A DNA stretch of 64,000 bases from an uncultured Methylibium sp. (GCA_964616015.1 CAZTTC010000001.1:1098-65097); one strand, 5' to 3'. Counted from the stretch's first letter, positions 6,378-61,827 are shown. The notes: generated by a model from the sequence alone, not told the origin. Translations and numbers: made by a program.

Positions 6378-6920
6378 TCAATGCCGGCCGAAGCGCAGGT
6401 GCACCGGCAGGTCGTTGAGCTTGGGTTCGGCGGCCTTCGCGGCCTCGTCCTTCATGCCCATCGAGAAGCCTTCACCGGCGGCCACCCGCAGGTCGCCCGA
6501 CGCCGCCACCGGCGCAGCGGCCGGCTTGAACACGCCGACGTAGCGCAGGCTGTAGCCACCGCCCACCTCGGCCCAGCCGTCGGCGTGGACCGGATTCTTC
6601 TTCCACGCTTCGAGCTCGGCGCGCACTTCGGCGCGGCTGCGGCCCGGGCCGGTGTGGCCGACGAAGCGCAGGCTGTTGCCGCCGGCGACCTCGGCCCAGC
6701 CGTCGGCGTGGACCGGGTTTGCGCGCCACGCGGCCAGCTCGGCCATCACCTCGGCGCGGGTCTTGCCGGCGACGCCGGTCTGCTCGACGCGCACCAGCGT
6801 GTCGCCGATCAGCTGGAAGCCGTCGTGCGTCGGGATGCCCTGGGCCGACACGGCCAGAGGCGAGAGGGTGGTCACGGCGGCCGCGACGGCCAGGATCAGG
6901 GTGTTGAGGCGGTAGGACAT
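6378..6920 (-). CDS. Secreted DUF4148-like repeat protein (paralog 1)
   Basis: ATG at 6920 follows a GGAG RBS. Signal peptide MSYRLNTLILAVAAA...VSA, then two 41-aa repeats of the form '(T/S)RAEV.AEL.AW..NPVHADGWAEV.GG.SLR.VG'. Confidence 0.75.
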   Translation of the reverse strand: MSYRLNTLILAVAAAVTTLSPLAVSAQGIPTHDGFQLIGDTLVRVEQTGVAGKTRAEVMAELAAWRANPVHADGWAEVAGGNSLRFVGHTGPGRSRAEVRAELEAWKKNPVHADGWAEVGGGYSLRYVGVFKPAAAPVAASGDLRVAAGEGFSMGMKDEAAKAAEPKLNDLPVHLRFGRH

Positions 6921-6951
6921 GATGGACTCCTGTTGACGTTGAGGTTCGGTA

Positions 6952-7036
6952 GCAGCGCTGATTCGTTTCAGCGTGAAGAGAACTTTAGGAAGCAACCCCC
7001 GACAAGAGCATCACGAACCGATTACGAATCCGAAAT
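6952..7036 (-). promoter_or_regulatory. Promoter copy 1: leader hairpin, -10 TAAAGT, and CzcR/CusR-type box ATTAC-N6-GAAAT
   Basis: Hairpin cgctga-ttcgtt-tcagcg; acttta at 6982 (TAAAGT on the minus strand); ATTAC at 7021. The arrangement is duplicated 605 nt downstream. Confidence 0.65.
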
Positions 7037-7119
7037 GAATCCATCCCGGAATTCATCAGCGGCTCGTGCGTGCTGCTCATGCGTAAGCCTTGTGCAGGGG
7101 TCGCGCAGGCGCCGGGCCA

Positions 7120-7524
7120 TCAGCGCGCGTTGAAGTGCCGCTCGGCCAGCTTCACGTCGGCCGCCGTCGGCTTGCCAACGAAGCGCAGTGACTCGCCGCC
7201 GATCTCGGCAAAGCCGTCGTGCGACACCGGGTTGGCGATCCACGCGGCCAGCTCGGCACGCACTTCGGCGCGGCTCTTGCCGGCGCTCTTGTCGTGGCCG
7301 GCGAACACCAGGGTGTCGCCGATCACCTGCCAGCTGTCGGCCTGGCGGTGGGTGACCAGTTCGGCCTTGACGTCGGCGCGGCTCTTCGGCGCGGCGTTCG
7401 CGTTGCCGACGTAGATCAGCGTGTCGCCGACGAGCTGGAAGCCGTCGTGACCGTTGGCCTGGGCGGCCAGGGGCGACAGGATCGCGGCGACAGCGACGAC
7501 GAGGGTGTTGAGGCGCAAGGACAT
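7120..7524 (-). CDS. Secreted DUF4148-like repeat protein (paralog 2)
   Basis: 134 aa with a signal peptide ending AQA. 'KSRA(D/E)V.AEL' repeats and 'HDGFQL.GDTL' are shared with paralog 1. Confidence 0.75.
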   Translation of the reverse strand: MSLRLNTLVVAVAAILSPLAAQANGHDGFQLVGDTLIYVGNANAAPKSRADVKAELVTHRQADSWQVIGDTLVFAGHDKSAGKSRAEVRAELAAWIANPVSHDGFAEIGGESLRFVGKPTAADVKLAERHFNAR

Positions 7525-9817: not shown

Positions 9818-11830
9818 ATGCCCATGCAACAGCCGCAGCAGCGGCAACAGCAGCGCGAGCACATCGCCACCGTCATGCAGGTGGCCGAGGCCGGCCCCGC
9901 GGCACGCGCCGCGCAGGCGCACGACGAGGTCATCCGCCAGTCCTGGGCGCGCTGCGTGCACGAGCACCGGCTCGACCCCACGCGCATGCAGGAGGCGGTG
10001 ATCCTGCCCAGCCACCAGCTGCGCGAGCACCAGGACCGCATCGAGGACTTCCTCCACATCGCCCGTCACGGCCTCGAGACGCTCTACCAGCAGGTCGCCG
10101 GCCTGGGCTACTGCGTGCTGCTGACCGACGCGCGCGGCGTCACCGTCGACTTCATCGGCGACCTGCAGTTGGACAGCAGCCTGCGCAAGGCCGGCCTCTA
10201 CCTGGGCGCCGACTGGAGCGAGCAGCACGCCGGCACCTGCGGCGTCGGCACCTGCATCAGCACCGGCGAGTCGCTGACCGTCCACCTGGACGACCACTTC
10301 GACGCCACCCACATCCCCCTGACCTGCACCACCGCACCGGTGTACGACGCGCAAGGCAAGCTCAACGCCGTGCTCGACATCAGCCAGCTCAGCAGCGCCC
10401 AGCCCAAGGCCAGCCAGCACCTGGCGCTGCAACTGGTGCGCACCTACGCCCAGCACATCGAGAACGCGAGCTTCCTGCACAGCCACCGCCACGCCTGGAT
10501 ATTGCGGCTGAGCGCCGCGCCCGCCTTCCTGGACGTGAACCCCGACTACCTGCTGGCGCTGGACGACGCCGGCAGATTGATCGGCCACAACCGCCGCGCG
10601 CAACTGCTGCTGGAGGCGCAGTGGAAGACCGCACTCGGCGGATCGGTCATCGGCCTGCCCTTCGACCGCCTGTTCAACGCCAGCGTCGGCGACCTGGGCC
10701 GCTACACGCTGGGCCGCGCCAGCGACCAGCGCGCCATCACCCTGGCCGGCAGCGGCCGCGTGCTCTTCATGCTGGCCAGCCCGCCGCCGCGACGCGACCC
10801 CTCGTCGGCGGCGGCGGCGTCGGCCCCGTCGCATCACCAGGATCCAGCCGCGGCGGAACGCAAGATCCCCAAGCCGCTGGCGGCGCTGTCGGGCGGCGAC
10901 CCGGCGCTGGACCGGCAGATCGAGCGCGCGGCCAAGCTGGTCAACTCGCCCGTCAGCGTGCTGCTGACCGGCGAGACCGGCTCAGGCAAGGAGTACTTTG
11001 CCAAGGCCCTGCACTACGCCAGCGAGCGCCGCGGCCGGCCCTTCGTGGCCGTCAACTGCGCGGCCATCCCGGAGACCCTGATCGAGAGCGAGCTCTTCGG
11101 TCACCTGCCCGGCAGCTTCTCGGGCGCCGGCCCCAAGGCCAAGAAGGGCCTGATCCAGGAGGCCGACGGCGGCAGCCTCTTCCTCGACGAGATCGGCGAC
11201 ATGCCGCGCGACCTGCAGGCCCGCCTGCTGCGCGTTCTGGCCGAGCGCGAGGTGCTGCCGATCGGCGCGACCAAGCCGACGCCCGTCAACATCCGCGTCA
11301 TCGCCGCGACGCACTGCGACCTGGAGCAACTGGTGCGCGAGCGGCGCTTTCGCGACGACCTGTACTACCGCCTCAACGGTGCGCACATCGCGCTGCCGCC
11401 GCTGCGCGAACGGCGCGACCTGGCCTGGCTGATCCAGCGGATGCTGGGCGAGAGCGCACGAGCCGCCGGGCGCGAGGAAGCGCCGCGGCTGTCGTCCGAG
11501 GTGAGCGAGCGGCTGCACGCGCATGCATGGCCGGGGAACCTGCGGGAGCTGCGCAATGTGATCGAGTTTGCGTGTGCGATGGGGACAGGCGGCTTGATCG
11601 GCACGGGGGATCTGCCCGATGGCTGGGCCGACGAGGAGCCACCGGCTCAGCGCGCGGCCGCCGATCCGCCAGGCCTTCCGCCCATCGACGAGCGCGCGCG
11701 CCTGCTCGATGCCATGCAAAGGGCCAACGGCAATGTCAGCGCAGCGGCGCGGTTGCTGGGGGTGTCACGGATGACGATGTACCGGCATATGGCAAAGGCA
11801 GGGATTGCCGTCCGTCGCACGGGGCATTGA
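9818..11830 (+). CDS. Sigma54-dependent activator, GAF + AAA+ + Fis HTH (AcoR-like)
   Basis: ATG at 9818 follows AGGAGA. GAF region (SWARC, WSE..AGTCGVGT), Walker A GETGSGKE, ESELFGH, GSFSGA (GAFTGA variant), LFLDEIGD, WPGNLREL and C-terminal HTH. Confidence 0.92.
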   Translation: MPMQQPQQRQQQREHIATVMQVAEAGPAARAAQAHDEVIRQSWARCVHEHRLDPTRMQEAVILPSHQLREHQDRIEDFLHIARHGLETLYQQVAGLGYCVLLTDARGVTVDFIGDLQLDSSLRKAGLYLGADWSEQHAGTCGVGTCISTGESLTVHLDDHFDATHIPLTCTTAPVYDAQGKLNAVLDISQLSSAQPKASQHLALQLVRTYAQHIENASFLHSHRHAWILRLSAAPAFLDVNPDYLLALDDAGRLIGHNRRAQLLLEAQWKTALGGSVIGLPFDRLFNASVGDLGRYTLGRASDQRAITLAGSGRVLFMLASPPPRRDPSSAAAASAPSHHQDPAAAERKIPKPLAALSGGDPALDRQIERAAKLVNSPVSVLLTGETGSGKEYFAKALHYASERRGRPFVAVNCAAIPETLIESELFGHLPGSFSGAGPKAKKGLIQEADGGSLFLDEIGDMPRDLQARLLRVLAEREVLPIGATKPTPVNIRVIAATHCDLEQLVRERRFRDDLYYRLNGAHIALPPLRERRDLAWLIQRMLGESARAAGREEAPRLSSEVSERLHAHAWPGNLRELRNVIEFACAMGTGGLIGTGDLPDGWADEEPPAQRAAADPPGLPPIDERARLLDAMQRANGNVSAAARLLGVSRMTMYRHMAKAGIAVRRTGH

Positions 11831-11845
11831 CAAGAGCCCGGGCGC

Positions 11846-11872
11846 TGTCGGCTTTCGACCCGAAGCGGTCGT
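11846..11872. repeat. Left boundary hairpin repeat of caspase insert
   Basis: tgtcggctttc-gaccc-gaagcggtcgt, an imperfect direct repeat of 14487-14516. Confidence 0.5.
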
Positions 11873-11889
11873 CGGGTGAAACTCAGTGG

Positions 11890-13782
11890 TCATCCCTGAA
11901 GCGGTCGCTCGTCGGAGGTGCCTACCTCCAAGAGAAACCAGGTTTGCCTGTCCGGTAGGGTCAGGGCAGCAAGCACAGAAAGCGCCTTGGTGACCGCTGT
12001 GGCGGGGGCGAGCATCATTGGCGGCCAAGTTGCTAAGAAGTCCGTTGTTCGGAAAACGTCATGCCCGATGGTCCATACAACGTTCTCGCCGGCGCGCATG
12101 ACTTCGTCGTTGAATTGCGCTAGGTTGGCGGGCATGTATGCGGAGAAGCTGACCCCGTCGAGCCGCCACAACGCTTCGTCAAAGACCTCTTCAAGGTCGA
12201 ACAGCCGCGCTGCCTTGAGCAGCACTGTCACGGTTTCCATCGGCCGCTCGATTAGCTCTGCGACCCCCGAGTAATCGCCAGACATCTTGGCCAGCAGGTA
12301 GGCCAGCGCATCCTCTGCAGACAGATCGCCGCGAGCGACCCGCCCACCTGAAGCGGTCAAGGAATAGAACAGCAGTCCGGCGAGGCGTTCGCCTTCGTCC
12401 ATGAGCCCGAGCTCCGATGCCTGGGCGAGGCAGATGCACCAGGCGCTTGCTTGCGAGTCATTGAGTGCCACCAACGATCGCTCATAGTGCTCAAGGATCA
12501 ATCGCAGCAGCACCTTCATCTGATCGAGTGCCTGCGCTCGTTGTTCTTCCGAATGGGCGACGTAGGGACCCGCAGCCGCCCAACCCAGCACCTGCGAGAC
12601 CCGCAGCGGAAGGAAGTACAACTCCGCCAGCCCGCCAGGTCTCGATGACAGCAGCGCGAATCGATCTGCTGACAAGCTCGAAATGAGGCGAGCGTTGGCA
12701 TCCAGGAGTGCCTTCGCCACTTCTCCCGTCAGTCTTTCGGCGACCGCGTAAGCCGCGGGATTCTCGACGTGGGGCATTAGAGAGGCGGCGAGGATTGCCG
12801 CCACAAGAACCCTTCGATAAGGGTCTTCGCACTGGGCCGCCCGCTGCAGGAAGGCCGAGGCGAGACGTTCGATGACGGTGGCGATCTGGTCGGGAGGCAA
12901 GTTGGGTGCCTGAACCATCGACCACACCAGACGCTGGAATCGCTCTTGGCTCCAATCACCGGATACGGACAAATATGTGGTCCAGAGCGCGTCCTGATTC
13001 GCCTTCACGATGTCATCAGTCTGGGTCGGCCAGGTCTGCACGAAGTCGCGCATGCGCTCAAGTCCGTCATTGCTGAAGCGCGGGTTGCGGCAAAAGCTTG
13101 GTGGCCCGTAAAGATTCAGCCCCCAAACGACGGGGTTCTGCCCCTCGGGTTGAAGCTTTGCAGCAACTCTGCGGCCGATGTCCACCAAGTCCAGCGCGCC
13201 GCCTGTGTCGTTGATAAGCTCTCTGCCTTCGATGCAATCGAGCAGCGCGTTAGTTCCCAACCCGCCGGCCACGGTCTCACCTGCGCCCTGGTTGCGTCCG
13301 GACGTTGCGACAAGCGTGAGGGCGGGGGTACCAACATCCCCTAGCAACTCGGGCTTGAGCAGCACGCCAAGATCGTCCACCAAGCCACCACTTTCGCAGG
13401 CATCAATAATGATGTTCGTCTGCCGAGGTGCGGCCTCGTTGATGCTACGGAACAAGTCAGCTAACGCTAACGCCGAAACAGATTGCGCGGTGGCCATCGT
13501 GTCTTTCAGCCACATGTAGAAGCTGCCGGCGTGCACCCCTCCATGGCCCGCGAAGAAGAAGGTAAAGGTCTCAATCGCTGGGCCCTTAAACAGCATGTCG
13601 CGCAGCACTGCACGAGCCTCGTCGAGCGTCGGAGAGCGCAACAGGCGAGATCTGCCAACGTCGTACCAGGGTGAATTCGCACTCACGAGTGCATCGAAGA
13701 TGCGCTGGGCGTCGGGCACTGCACCGGTCAGTGGACTTGCTTCGTCGTACTCGTTGCAGCCTATAGCCAGCAAAACTCTCAC
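11890..13782 (-). CDS. Caspase-family (peptidase C14/metacaspase-like) protease with large helical C-terminal domain
   Basis: N-terminal 'LLAIGCNEY...L.GAVPDA', catalytic FFFAGHG and IIIDACESG, followed by about 380 aa of unassigned helical sequence. GTG start overlaps the upstream stop. Confidence 0.88.
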   Translation of the reverse strand: MRVLLAIGCNEYDEASPLTGAVPDAQRIFDALVSANSPWYDVGRSRLLRSPTLDEARAVLRDMLFKGPAIETFTFFFAGHGGVHAGSFYMWLKDTMATAQSVSALALADLFRSINEAAPRQTNIIIDACESGGLVDDLGVLLKPELLGDVGTPALTLVATSGRNQGAGETVAGGLGTNALLDCIEGRELINDTGGALDLVDIGRRVAAKLQPEGQNPVVWGLNLYGPPSFCRNPRFSNDGLERMRDFVQTWPTQTDDIVKANQDALWTTYLSVSGDWSQERFQRLVWSMVQAPNLPPDQIATVIERLASAFLQRAAQCEDPYRRVLVAAILAASLMPHVENPAAYAVAERLTGEVAKALLDANARLISSLSADRFALLSSRPGGLAELYFLPLRVSQVLGWAAAGPYVAHSEEQRAQALDQMKVLLRLILEHYERSLVALNDSQASAWCICLAQASELGLMDEGERLAGLLFYSLTASGGRVARGDLSAEDALAYLLAKMSGDYSGVAELIERPMETVTVLLKAARLFDLEEVFDEALWRLDGVSFSAYMPANLAQFNDEVMRAGENVVWTIGHDVFRTTDFLATWPPMMLAPATAVTKALSVLAALTLPDRQTWFLLEVGTSDERPLQG

Positions 13783-14414
13783 GGCGCTTCTCCGTAGCGT
13801 GCGAACCGAGCTTTGCGCTGGACCTCCTCCTCGATGGCCTCGGAGGATCGAATCTCATCCAGTTGCTGGATGCGCTGAAGCAGCTCCGGCGGAGCCGACT
13901 CCTGCGCTCGCCGAAACCTCTCAAAGGCCTCCGGAGACAGATGGATCTGAGGCCGCTGCACATTTCCGTGCTTGTCCGCGCTGAAGCGGATGGTCTCAAG
14001 CATGGCCGCAAAGCCCTCGATTGGCCCACCTGCCGCCGACGCGTCGACCACGTTTCCGCTCTGGTCGCAGGCCGCCGAGATGGTGGCGTACATCATCCGC
14101 TGGAACTGCGCGTTCAGGTCTTCGACGAGTTTGTCCACGTAGCGCGAGATGGCTGAAAGGTCGTGGTTTACCAGCTCATCGAACTGAATGGCGACCTCGG
14201 AGGAGTGCTGCTGCATCCCAGCGTTGTACGCATTGGGTAGTCCGGGATGACTCCAGTCGCCCCCGTGGCGGAACCGCTGCACGTTCTCGGCTGGGATGAG
14301 CTGGGCCATTCGCACTTTGAGGGCGTCGCTTAGAAACTTCATGAGCTCTCGTTCGAACGCCTTCGACGCGGCGTTGTCGTGAAGGAAATCGACTCGATTT
14401 GGTGATGACCTCAT
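13779..14414 (-). CDS. Hypothetical protein, 211 aa, possibly a truncated HK97/encapsulin-like fold
   Basis: Clean ORF translationally coupled (GTGA) to the caspase gene. The fold call is by-eye motif resemblance only. Confidence 0.7.
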   Translation of the reverse strand: MRSSPNRVDFLHDNAASKAFERELMKFLSDALKVRMAQLIPAENVQRFRHGGDWSHPGLPNAYNAGMQQHSSEVAIQFDELVNHDLSAISRYVDKLVEDLNAQFQRMMYATISAACDQSGNVVDASAAGGPIEGFAAMLETIRFSADKHGNVQRPQIHLSPEAFERFRRAQESAPPELLQRIQQLDEIRSSEAIEEEVQRKARFARYGEAP

Positions 14415-14486
14415 AGCATTCGATGCTGGGTTGTAGGTTGTGCTTGAACTGCGTCTTGCATCTTGGCATGCAATGAGCAGGACGCA

Positions 14487-14548
14487 TGTGGGCTTTCACG
14501 CACGTGAAGCTGCCGTTCGGGGCTGACCGCTCCTGGCCGAGGGCAGTC
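14487..14548. repeat. Right boundary hairpin repeats of caspase insert
   Basis: tgtgggctttc-acgcacgt-gaagctgccgt, followed by tgaccgctcctggccgagggcagtc. Confidence 0.5.
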
Positions 14549-14583
14549 CCTCTCCATCACAGTGCGTTGACCCTCCGGCACCT

Positions 14584-14603
14584 TGTCTCACACTCGTGAG
14601 ACA
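14584..14603. promoter_or_regulatory. Probable enhancer (UAS) of the sigma54 activator, perfect palindrome TGTCTCA-N6-TGAGACA
   Basis: Perfect 7-bp inverted repeat about 120 nt upstream of the -24/-12 site. TGT...ACA arms are typical of Fis-HTH enhancer-binding proteins. Confidence 0.7.
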
Positions 14604-14720: not shown

Positions 14721-14735
14721 CGGCACGCCCCTTGC
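14721..14735 (+). promoter_or_regulatory. Sigma54 -24/-12 promoter
   Basis: CGGCAC-GCCCC-TTGC matches YGGCAC-N5-TTGC, 70 nt upstream of the ATG at 14806. Confidence 0.75.
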
Positions 14736-14805: not shown

Positions 14806-16620
14806 ATGACCGAGCTCACCAACCCCCACACCCAGTCCGTGAAGAGCTGGCTCGCCAGCCTGGGCGCGGCGCTGGAAAAGAGCGACATCCCCGGCGCGCT
14901 GGCGCTGTTCGACGACGACTGCTATTGGCGCGACCTGGTCAGCTTCACCTGGAACCTGCACACCGCCGAGGGCAAGCCCGCCATCGATGCGATGCTGAAG
15001 GCCACGCTGTCGAACACCAAGCCTTGCAACTGGCAGATCAGCGGCGAGGGCGAGGACGGCGGTGGCTTCAGCCAGGCCTGGTTCAGCTTCGAGACCGCGG
15101 TCGCGCGCGGCAAGGGCCTGGTGCGCCTGAAGGGCGACAAGTGCTGGACGCTGCTGACCACGATGGTCGAGCTGAAGGGCTTTGAGGAAGCCAAGGGTCC
15201 GACGCGCGTCAAGGGCGTGACGCACGGCGCCCATGCCGACCGGCAGACCTGGCTCGAGGCGCGCCAGCAGGAGGCCGCGGACCTGGGCTACAAGCAGCAG
15301 CCCGAGGTGGTGATCATCGGCGGCGGCCAGGGCGGCATCGCGCTCGGCGCGCGGCTGCGGCGGCTGGGCGTGCCGACCATCATCGTCGAGAAGAACGCCA
15401 AGCCCGGCGACAGCTGGCGCAAGCGCTACAAGAGCCTGTGCCTGCACGACCCGGTCTGGTACGACCACCTGCCCTACCTGCCCTTCCCCGACCACTGGCC
15501 CGTCTTCGCGCCCAAGGACAAGATCGGCGACTGGCTGGAGATGTACACGCGGGTGATGGAGCTGAACTACTGGAGTTCCACCACCTGCCAGAAGGCCAGC
15601 TTCGACGAGGCCCGGGGCGAGTGGACGGTGCAGGTGGTGCGTCGCGTGGGTGATGAACTCAAGCCGGTCACGCTGCGACCCAAGCAGCTGGTCATCGCCA
15701 CCGGCATGTCGGCCGTGCCCAACGTGCCCAGGTACCCGGGCGCCGACAGCTTTGCGGGCGAGCAGCAGCACTCCAGCCAGCATCCGGGGCCGGACGCCTA
15801 CGTGGGCAAGAAGGTGGTGGTGATCGGCTCCAACAACTCGGCGCACGACATCTGCGCGGCGCTGTGGGAGCAGGGCGTGGACGTCACGATGATCCAGCGC
15901 ACGTCCACCCACATCATCAAGAGCGACACGCTGATGGAGCTGGCGCTGGGCGGCCTGTACTCCGAGCAGGCGGTGGCCAGCGGCATCGACCACCACAAGG
16001 CCGACCTGATCTTCGCCAGCGTGCCCTACAAGATCATGGCGGGCTTCCACGTGCCGGTGTACGAAGAAGCGAAGAAGCGCGACGCCGACCTCTACGACCG
16101 GCTCGCCAAGCGCGGCTTCATGCTCGACTTCGGCGACGACGGCTCGGGCCTGTTCATGAAGTACCTGCGCCGCGGCTCGGGCTACTACATCGACGTGGGC
16201 GCGTCCGAGCTGGTGGCCGACGGCAAGATCAAGCTCAAGAGCGGCGTCTCGGTCGAGAAGATCAACCCGAAGTCCATCACCTTCAGCGACGGCAGCGAGC
16301 TGCCGGCCGACCTGATCGTCTACGCGACCGGCTATTCGTCGATGAACGGCTGGGCCGAGATGCTGATCAGCAAGGACGTCGCCGACAAGGTGGGCAAGTG
16401 CTGGGGCCTGGGCTCGGCCACCACCAAGGACCCCGGCCCCTGGGAGGGCGAGCTGCGCAACATGTGGAAGCCGACGCAGCAGCGCAACCTGTGGTTCCAC
16501 GGCGGCAACCTGCACCAGTCGCGCCACTACTCGCAGTTCCTGTCGCTGCAGCTCAAGGCGCGCAGCGTCGGCATCCCGACGCCGGTGTACGCGCTGCCGA
16601 AGGTGAACCACCTGAGGTAG
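14806..16620 (+). CDS. Type II flavin-containing monooxygenase (NTF2/SnoaL-like N-terminal extension + FAD/NAD(P) domains)
   Basis: N-terminal 'YWRDLVSFTWN'; GGGQGG FAD motif; 'GDSWRKRYKSLCLHDPVWYDHLPY'; FAGEQQHSSQH fingerprint; GSNNSAHD; ATGY. Confidence 0.88.
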   Translation: MTELTNPHTQSVKSWLASLGAALEKSDIPGALALFDDDCYWRDLVSFTWNLHTAEGKPAIDAMLKATLSNTKPCNWQISGEGEDGGGFSQAWFSFETAVARGKGLVRLKGDKCWTLLTTMVELKGFEEAKGPTRVKGVTHGAHADRQTWLEARQQEAADLGYKQQPEVVIIGGGQGGIALGARLRRLGVPTIIVEKNAKPGDSWRKRYKSLCLHDPVWYDHLPYLPFPDHWPVFAPKDKIGDWLEMYTRVMELNYWSSTTCQKASFDEARGEWTVQVVRRVGDELKPVTLRPKQLVIATGMSAVPNVPRYPGADSFAGEQQHSSQHPGPDAYVGKKVVVIGSNNSAHDICAALWEQGVDVTMIQRTSTHIIKSDTLMELALGGLYSEQAVASGIDHHKADLIFASVPYKIMAGFHVPVYEEAKKRDADLYDRLAKRGFMLDFGDDGSGLFMKYLRRGSGYYIDVGASELVADGKIKLKSGVSVEKINPKSITFSDGSELPADLIVYATGYSSMNGWAEMLISKDVADKVGKCWGLGSATTKDPGPWEGELRNMWKPTQQRNLWFHGGNLHQSRHYSQFLSLQLKARSVGIPTPVYALPKVNHLR

Positions 16621-60585: not shown

Positions 60586-61827
60586 ATGGCCCTGACCGCA
60601 GTTCAGATCCGAAACGCAAAGCCAGAGGCGAAGCCCTATCGCATGTTCGATGGTGAAGGGCTGTATCTCGAGGTCACTCCGACAGGTGGTCGGCTGTGGC
60701 GCCTCAAGTACCGCTTCGGTGGCAAGGAGAAGCGACTCGCGATCGGTCAGTACCCAGCCCTGTCGCTGGCCGATGCGAGGCAACGCGCGCAGGAAGCCCG
60801 TCGCGGCTTGGTCGACGGCATCGATCCCGGCCTGGCCAAGCAAGCCGCCAAGGCTGCTCGAGCAGCGGGCGTGGCCAACGCCTTCGAGGCGCTCGCCCGC
60901 GAGTGGCACGCGACCAAGCGCGACAGCTGGTCAACGACGTACGCCGAGAAGGTGCTCCGTCGCCTTGAGCTCGATGTCTTTCCTTGGCTCGGCCGGCGGC
61001 CGATCGCCGACATCGAGCCGCCCGAGCTGCTGGCCGTGTTGCGACGGAGCGAGAGCCGAGGAGCGCTAGAGACGACCAGGCGCAACCTCGAGGCGTGCAG
61101 TCAGATCTTCCGGTACGCGATCGCGACGGGCCGAGCGAAGTCCGATCCAACACGCGATCTCAAGGGCGCGCTCAAGACTCCGATCGCTACGCCGTTTGCT
61201 GCAATCACCGACCCGGTGAGGCTGGGAGAACTGCTTCGCGCGATCGATGGCTACCAAGGCAGCGCCATCGTGCGCGCTGCGGTCAAGCTGACGCCACTGC
61301 TGCTGCTGCGACCGACCGAGCTGCGGGCCAGCCCGTGGGTCGACTTCGACCTGGACGAGGCCGTACTGCGTGTCGCGAGCCTACGAATGAAGCGTGGCCG
61401 TGCCGGGAAGCTGCACGGGCCACCACATCTGGTGCCGCTGCCGACGCAGGCGGTCGAGATCCTGCGAGACCTGCACGCGCTGACCGGGCACGGCACGCTT
61501 GCCTTCCCTGGCCAGCGGCACCGCGATCGACCAATCAGCGAGAACACGGTCAACGCCGCGCTGCGCGCGCTCGGCTACCCCGGGGACGTACAGACCGCGC
61601 ACGGCTTTCGCGCCACGGCTCGGACGATGCTCGAGGAGCGGCTCGGCGTCGCGCCTGCCGTGATCGAGGCCCAGCTTGCGCACGATGTGCCCGACGCCCT
61701 CGGGCGTAGCTACAACCGCACCGAGTTCCTCGACCAGCGTCGACGAATGATGCAGGTGTGGGCCGACTACCTGGACCAGCTGCGCCAAGGCGCCAAGGTC
61801 GTGCCCTTTCCCGGGGCTGCTGCCTAA
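60586..61827 (+). CDS. int: P4-type tyrosine integrase (Arm-DNA-binding domain)
   Basis: DGEGLYLEV...G.RLWRLKYRFGGKEKRLAIG.YP; catalytic R (LRPTE), HGFR, QLAH and Y (SYNR). Confidence 0.95.
   Translation: MALTAVQIRNAKPEAKPYRMFDGEGLYLEVTPTGGRLWRLKYRFGGKEKRLAIGQYPALSLADARQRAQEARRGLVDGIDPGLAKQAAKAARAAGVANAFEALAREWHATKRDSWSTTYAEKVLRRLELDVFPWLGRRPIADIEPPELLAVLRRSESRGALETTRRNLEACSQIFRYAIATGRAKSDPTRDLKGALKTPIATPFAAITDPVRLGELLRAIDGYQGSAIVRAAVKLTPLLLLRPTELRASPWVDFDLDEAVLRVASLRMKRGRAGKLHGPPHLVPLPTQAVEILRDLHALTGHGTLAFPGQRHRDRPISENTVNAALRALGYPGDVQTAHGFRATARTMLEERLGVAPAVIEAQLAHDVPDALGRSYNRTEFLDQRRRMMQVWADYLDQLRQGAKVVPFPGAAA

Follow-up and report, generated by a model that had tools for sequence, protein, structure and literature searches.

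We analysed a stretch of 64,000 nucleotides from an uncultured Methylibium sp. (GCA_964616015.1 CAZTTC010000001.1:1098-65097; hereafter the window), in which a two-gene insert lies between the gene for a sigma54-dependent activator and that for a flavin-containing monooxygenase (Table 1). The insert carries two overlapping minus-strand open reading frames (ORFs), which encode a predicted capsid-like protein of 211 amino acids (aa) and a caspase-family protease of 630 aa, and its guanine-plus-cytosine (GC) content is 0.60, compared with 0.71 and 0.67 in the two flanks. A 24-bp quasi-palindromic site lies near each end. The two sites are of different types, which we call A and B, and face inward. 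They probably delimit a gene cassette that would be mobilised in trans by a tyrosine recombinase.

Table 1. Features of the insert and its flanks, with coordinates counted from the first nucleotide of the window
Feature	Position	Strand	Details
Sigma54-dependent activator, left-flank host gene	9818..11830	+	670 aa; Sigma54_activat PF00158, E 1e-64, and HTH_8; orthologues 85% identical in G007 and G008
Possible left copy of 5-bp direct repeat TTGAC at outer edge	11827..11831	+	Weak; could be chance
Type A site, left cassette boundary	11847..11870	+	9-6-9, spacer CGACCC; 29.6 bits, near consensus; L055 homology ends at 11867
Caspase-family (C14) protease with long C-terminal region	11890..13782	-	630 aa; PADLOC caspase model, E 1.6e-12; PF00656 in homologues
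Predicted truncated HK97 capsid/encapsulin-like protein, first operon gene	13779..14414	-	211 aa
Decayed inner site	14488..14514	-	One good arm; starts 34 bp inside the B site; arm-only score below zero
Type B site, right cassette boundary	14525..14548	-	9-6-9, spacer CGGCCA on minus strand; 16.8 bits, degenerate; L055 match: inner arm 9/9, spacer 5/6, outer arm 3/9
Possible right copy of direct repeat TTGAC	14567..14571	+	Weak; could be chance
Likely upstream activator sequence (UAS) of monooxygenase promoter	14584..14603		A similar palindrome occupies this position in G007, G008 and 8/8 empty-site loci
-24/-12-like promoter element of monooxygenase gene	14721..14735	+	From sequence; similar element in L021 and L022
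Flavin-containing monooxygenase, right-flank host gene	14806..16620	+	PF00743, PF13738

An original prediction made from this DNA described a discrete insert that splits the activator from its own promoter and is bounded by related hairpin repeats. The activator gene does end at 11830, and both the UAS palindrome (TGTCTCACACTCGTGAGACA, from 14584) and the -24/-12-like element at 14721 are present and separated from the activator by the insert. However, the promoter is that of the monooxygenase gene; it is intact, and its two elements stay together beside that gene. Because sigma54 activators work in trans, regulation of the monooxygenase by the activator need not be disturbed. As predicted, the insert contains no transposase or integrase ORF, only the two ORFs described above.

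Contigs of two studies (X1 and X3; X4) bridge both insert junctions without differences, X1 possibly being the source itself and X4 coming from another study, so the insert is unlikely to be an assembly artefact. Runs with a small word share (X8-X20) were left aside. The empty site that the original prediction proposed to look for in relatives was found in 8 of 28 loci of the family, where the activator stop codon lies 3-22 bp ahead of the same UAS palindrome. These loci were chosen via the monooxygenase (38 matches in 301 genomes; 30 loci returned, minus the source genome and one duplicate), and the remaining 20 have no activator within the 0.3-1.5 kb of sequence examined. Outside the sites, the insert extends only 16 bp and 35 bp. 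A possible 5-bp direct repeat, TTGAC, has its copies 15 and 18 bp beyond the sites, not flush with them, and could be chance; if it is a real target duplication, removing the insert would leave a 13-bp gap between stop codon and UAS, as in the empty loci. The insert is real, discrete and non-autonomous, and the GC step, the empty site and the site-model scans described below bear out the earlier proposal of a cassette; its end motifs come from a real, edge-marking family.

Within the genus of the window, synteny is kept in 2 of 15 other genomes (G007 and G008), each with a different insert in the same gap. In G007 this is a 2056-bp insert with two toxin-antitoxin-like pairs, RelE plus helix-turn-helix antitoxin and a zeta-toxin pair (L021:5768-7681), and in G008 a 516-bp insert with a tautomerase gene (L022:5641-6081). 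Neither insert contains sites of the family described here. Because these inserts are different and site-free, the gap appears to be a neutral slot that has been filled three times independently, in three species.

The 24-bp quasi-palindrome emerged from the flanks of 75 caspase homologue loci, and pattern scans of viral contigs and genomes provided 175 distinct sites. Each site consists of a 9-bp arm, a 6-bp spacer and a second 9-bp arm; both arms share one consensus, and positions 11 and 14, which mirror each other, hardly vary. When the spacer is masked and sites are recognised by their arms only, 151 of the 175 still carry CGGCCA (type B) or CGACCC (type A), 95 of these 151 being seeds. 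Both spacers are asymmetric, and by this measure the A and B sites of the window are inverted. An oriented model trained without the window gives exactly two hits of at least 8 bits in the 64 kb, at 11847 (+) and 14525 (-), and none in the reversed control. The same two sites rank first and second in the 3.74-Mb assembly, which has five sites of at least 14 bits. A third, lone B-like site of the same genome (G000:C74:12091-12114, 15.6 bits) lies between convergent genes at a GC step. The end pair was not reported by a generic repeat finder, Rfam at E up to 10 gave four chance-level hits only, and a first site model showed no excess over the reversed control in the source genome. The results of a free-spacer pattern run on 301 genomes of the order were not used, many of its matches resembling chance occurrences in coding sequence.

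The repeats previously described at 11846-11872 and 14487-14516, together with a further unit at 14524-14548, are all present, and the first and last coincide with the insert edges as the A and B sites. However, the true pair is 11847-11870 with 14525-14548, and it is inverted, not direct, whereas 14487-14516 corresponds to a decayed inner site that scores below zero under the 24-bp model. The offset of 34 bp between this remnant and the B site is the commonest doublet spacing in the site family (18 of 44 short pairs). At 14559-14582, 34 bp outside the B site, a decayed site of type A was considered but rejected: its spacer matches at 5 of 6 positions but, by eye, its arms do not match. A site-like arm is also found at 11883-11906, within the last codons of the caspase gene, and the closest caspase homologues exceed distant ones in length by some 10 residues, as though the end of the gene had grown into a decayed site.

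The site family is real, patchy and clustered. A class-level scan found 30 matches in 5 of 401 genomes (none in the reversed control) and a family-level scan 37 matches in 16 of 151 genomes (control, 3). Among adjacent pairs at least 200 bp apart (n=96, including some near-copies), inward A/B pairs are the largest class with 42 members, followed by 19 direct B/B and 12 direct A/A pairs. One ORF takes up over half the span in 35 of the 42 inward A/B pairs, and the gene is usually oriented from A to B (24 compared with 11), whereas the window operon reads from B to A. The window itself is a single unit. Elsewhere, long rows of sites occur in chromosomes (G586 and G117) and behind phage tail genes, mostly with one small, low-GC gene per interval and mostly co-oriented. 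A genome of the window's own family has rows of 14 sites (L621, G117:C1:1650875-1655350) and 9 sites (L620), with B sites pointing inward from both ends and no tyrosine recombinase found in the surrounding 16-19 kb. The near-complete genome G586 carries several chromosomal arrays (L287, L288 and L319) with back-to-back A/B junctions of a fixed 73 or 83 bp. In G475 (L266, L278 and L261), the A/B junctions are 163-174 bp long and contain two more internal arm pairs with other spacings, resembling accessory sites. A variant spacer class, CGGCCC, is present in many copies in G179 (L622-L625), where some inward pairs are just 200-250 bp apart.

The position of exchange was mapped by comparing 360 site-bearing loci, all against all, and locating the points where homology ends with unrelated sequence beyond. 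Of 1108 such breakpoints, 460 fall at site positions 12-35 from the shared side, where chance would place about 1.1% per side. At the variable arm positions, identity is 0.97 on the shared side and 0.60 past the spacer (275 aligned pairs, 65 contexts). Followed along the site in these 275 pairs, it stays at 0.97 through the near arm and drops to 0.49 at position 16 and 0.28 beyond the site. For B and enteric-type sites, this drop occurs whichever direction the site is approached from, and the arm positions bracket the exchange between site positions 9 and 16. In related loci, homology breaks inside the 6-bp spacer, and the two arms are exchanged independently. Tyrosine recombinases with a 6-bp overlap give such a breakpoint pattern, and the match between the two suggests a crossover on double-stranded DNA by an enzyme of this class. 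Copies of the window operon part at the sites as well: L055, 91% identical to the window over 11867-14539, diverges from it at the B spacer, and L059 and L118, which share another version of the operon (93% over 3 kb), diverge where a B site and an A site lie.

We consider it probable that the two genes of the insert form a cassette delimited by two 24-bp sites that face inward and differ in their 6-bp spacers, and that a tyrosine recombinase supplied in trans would cut these sites in the spacer, as double-stranded DNA. Recombination would join sites of one type, A with A and B with B. An A/B pair would then act as a slot whose cargo could be swapped, and could be neither deleted nor inverted, and the copy in the window may still be active. 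In contrast, direct sites of one type in a row would allow cassettes to be gained and lost one at a time, in the manner of integrons.

A putative enzyme for the sites is a tyrosine recombinase (PF00589) of about 205 aa, consisting of the catalytic domain only, which is present in 25 of the 151 family genomes and forms one well-supported group on a long branch. We tentatively regard it as the candidate, with somewhat less than even confidence. Clustering of near-site ORFs found no recombinase adjoining the sites and gave phage-hotspot genes; a 198-aa recombinase of G475 was dropped, lying more than 2 kb from the nearest site. The original prediction had also called for a recombinase distributed with the repeats. 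At the loci of the 205-aa enzyme, sites are enriched: 11 of 30 have one, whereas none of 29 loci of arm-type integrases and none of 19 loci of flanking genes does (Fisher p 0.0003). At the level of genomes, co-distribution is slight, the enzyme being found in 4 of 15 site-positive and 21 of 135 other genomes.

Several further observations weigh, with this weak co-distribution, against the proposed model. The 205-aa recombinase was not found in the source assembly (G000, 92% complete), in G586, G574, G475 or G063, or in 12 regions around family sites; among its viral loci just 8 of 64 have a site within 400 bp, and flanking by sites may merely make it a cargo. The type B site of the window is, taken alone, barely over background, with 3 hits of at least 16 bits compared with 1 in the reversed control. 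The breakpoint data are uneven: 184 of the 275 pairs represent one enteric-type class, type B contributes 36 pairs and type A a single one, related pairs are not independent, and because the loci were chosen by spacer-fixing patterns, the agreement between spacers is to some extent a product of that choice. In L055 the A site breaks off after 4 nucleotides and so does not reflect a clean crossover, and the matches listed in four runs of contigs include no joint at the sites. A site stands at the operon edge in only 11 of 86 caspase loci (9 of 36 at 47% identity or more), so either the operon also moves by other means or its sites decay. Since the window has both outer arms, the arrival of the slot is not explained by a single crossover into a bare chromosome. 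Use of the activator-monooxygenase gap also appears not to be specific to the 24-bp sites.

These observations leave a real place, if a less than even one, for an account that is compatible with the site family itself: the sites of the window would be leftovers, the DNA having arrived as part of some larger array or island through homologous or illegitimate recombination, and this copy would now be immobile. The unrelated, site-free inserts in the same gap of G007 and G008 fit such a history, as do the degenerate B site, the identical junctions in two studies, the failure to find the candidate enzyme in the assembly and the 5-bp direct repeat outside both sites. However, the insert is trimmed closely to its two sites, and the A site is near consensus. 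The original prediction held that the ends fold as single-strand hairpins, to be recognised by an IntI-like or HUH enzyme. Folding of the ends is ordinary, no better than that of shuffled sequences (z -0.51, +0.30 and -0.20 for single units, and -1.4 to +0.9 for end regions), and the proposed GCTT/AAGC pairing of the right repeat is broken in L055. The GTTRRRY core is lacking, as had been noted from the start: the attC core, RYYYAAC ... GTTRRRY, is in neither end region and in 2 of 171 family sites, and the GTAG/CTAC motif is absent from both ends. The arms of a site pair slightly better with each other than shuffled arms do (8.38 compared with 8.07 of 12 pairs, a value reached by 2 of 2000 shuffles with a statistic that ignores relatedness), the arrays resemble integron cassette rows, and the back-to-back A/B junctions of 58-200 bp could conceivably fold. 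The source genome also has a gene, G000:C24:552-1550, for a putative IntI-like integrase, whose protein groups with a similar one of G574. Against this, arms are exchanged independently across the spacer, the site-rich G586 has no IntI-length match, and Y1 transposases were weak and unlinked or not found, with no match in G586, G574 or G475. Mobilisation via folded hairpins is unlikely, and recognition of such structures by an IntI-like or HUH enzyme seems to us quite improbable.

If the spacer is cut as double-stranded DNA, the main alternative to the 205-aa recombinase is host Xer. XerC/XerD, or another core tyrosine recombinase, would work the sites as in the plasmid dif (pdif) modules of Acinetobacter, which share with them a 6-bp centre, two spacer classes and inverted flanking sites, in the passages of PMC6449649 that deal with this layout. 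It would suit this explanation that arrays lack a linked enzyme and that the tyrosine recombinases of G586 comprise just two of Xer size and three of about 430 aa. However, a single consensus for both arms suggests one protein and not a C/D pair, and the sites are patchy among genomes, although to our knowledge Xer is near universal in this bacterial group; we regard this reading as unlikely. The almost invariant symmetric positions 11 and 14 would also allow the site to be read as 11-2-11 by a serine resolvase or invertase, with the extra sites at a 34-bp period as accessory sites, and both the 34-bp doublets and the additional sites within long junctions would agree with this. Yet neither small serine resolvases nor Y1 transposases follow the site-rich genomes: PF00239 has no match in G000, G586 or G574 and only matches of about 500-600 aa in G475 and G063, and a strict pattern found no serine recombinase motif beside the sites. 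A serine enzyme is highly improbable.

The cargo can be described further than its annotation. In the caspase, H80, G81 and C129, the catalytic His-Gly/Cys dyad, are invariant in 25 sequences, and PF00656 is above cut-off in homologues, though not in the 630-aa protein of the window. The 211-aa gene stands directly upstream of the caspase gene in 80 of 81 loci with enough sequence, in many proteobacteria, and its product is a member of an extensive unnamed family, with 1332 representatives at E up to 0.001. A fold predicted from 38 sequences had given no structural lead (predicted template modelling score, pTM, 0.48), whereas one from 148 sequences has a pTM of 0.80 and a predicted local distance difference test score (pLDDT) of 92.5, with a long helix at its end. 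The top-scoring structure for this fold is an encapsulin (Z 5.4, root-mean-square deviation 4.7, 148 residues), although unrelated helical entries tie with it in Z; all nine entries aligned over 139-169 residues are HK97-fold shells. PF25209 matches are weak and below cut-off, with atlas neighbours at 0.83. Foldseek returned nothing at E up to 0.001, and a profile search of the PDB and PHROGs were blank or nearly so. The 211-aa protein likely has an HK97-like fold, to judge from the model. PADLOC 2.0 matched the operon with its generic caspase model only, leaving the partner protein without a match. From the domains and the mobile context, we lean towards the view that the cargo is an anti-phage system. 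In this view, phage capsid subunits would be bound by the capsid-like protein while they assemble, and the caspase would thereby be activated.

Two other features of the window concern different systems. A 471-aa arm-type phage integrase near the right end, at about 60590-61720, is unrelated to the cassette. At 6378-7524, two adjacent small ORFs of secreted type with internal repeats lie beside a two-component system, and the repeats are found in G007 and G008 too.

Inverted repeats reportedly flank the Z/fun slot of P2-like coliphages, and are said to have been described by Nilsson, Karlsson and Haggard-Ljungquist in 2004. In 12 kb of AF063097, the two highest scores of a site model built from non-enteric sites, 22.1 and 11.1 bits, fall on the pair that flanks P2 fun(Z), compared with a reversed maximum of 1.3. 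By their sequence, the window sites belong to a family that includes these P2 sites. The P2 slot has the same arm consensus and a variable cargo between two unlike sites, and breakpoints fall in the spacer in enteric-type loci too. In contrast, the window has the spacers CGACCC and CGGCCA, a chromosomal, non-phage slot in a betaproteobacterium-type host, and a two-gene caspase cargo.

Integron cassettes form rows of small, low-GC, single-gene, mostly co-oriented units with attC sites. The arrays of the window family in other genomes are similar to these rows and to integrase-less attC clusters, being themselves rows of small, low-GC, single-gene units. However, the family lacks the GTTRRRY core and the attC fold, has its crossover in the central spacer and two site types, and no linked integrase was found. 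Repetitive extragenic palindromes (REP/REPIN) with RAYT are high-copy, GTAG-tagged hairpins with a linked Y1 transposase, a description that the window sites do not fit. Closer in layout are the pdif modules, in which, according to the same passages of PMC6449649, accessory genes lie between inverted sites with a 6-bp centre and two spacer classes and the enzyme acts in trans. These modules have separate XerC and XerD arms, whereas the window family has symmetric copies of one motif, also occurs in rows of direct sites, and is found in chromosomes and phages.

The 211-aa protein aligns with encapsulins and HK97 capsids over 139-169 residues, but it falls far short of their length, has a long helix at its end and is coupled with a caspase. 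Passages of PMC12236752 describe Avs8, which senses capsids with a STAND protein; the window cargo has instead a capsid-like protein. In the open-access literature searched, excluding supplements, which could list the sites or the operon, we found no description of the 24-bp site system or of the pairing of a capsid-like protein with a caspase, and this cargo is apparently undescribed. A term search of a 2026 survey of P2/P4 hotspots (PMC13586616) showed no passage on palindromic boundary sites. To these systems we add a chromosomal example of betaproteobacterial type, a mapped crossover interval, a mixed enzyme test and the cargo itself.

A broader picture, as a whole somewhat unlikely, is that proteobacteria possess a second, integron-independent cassette economy, in which a tiny tyrosine recombinase acting in trans on two address-coded 24-bp sites would move genes between phages and chromosomes. 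The slot would here carry an undescribed form of immunity: a phage capsid protein, truncated and domesticated, would enter capsids as they assemble and set off a caspase. The rapid swapping of defence genes at phage and chromosomal hotspots is stated to be unresolved in a passage of Rousset et al. 2022 (PMC9122126), and a defined site with a mapped crossover interval and a candidate enzyme makes that question testable. New cassettes can also be searched for by means of the sites, and a pair that recombines like with like would lend itself naturally to use as a cassette-exchange tool. A capsid-like protein tightly coupled to a caspase would be a new way of sensing phage assembly, and the site pair points to a route of gene-cassette exchange separate from integrons.

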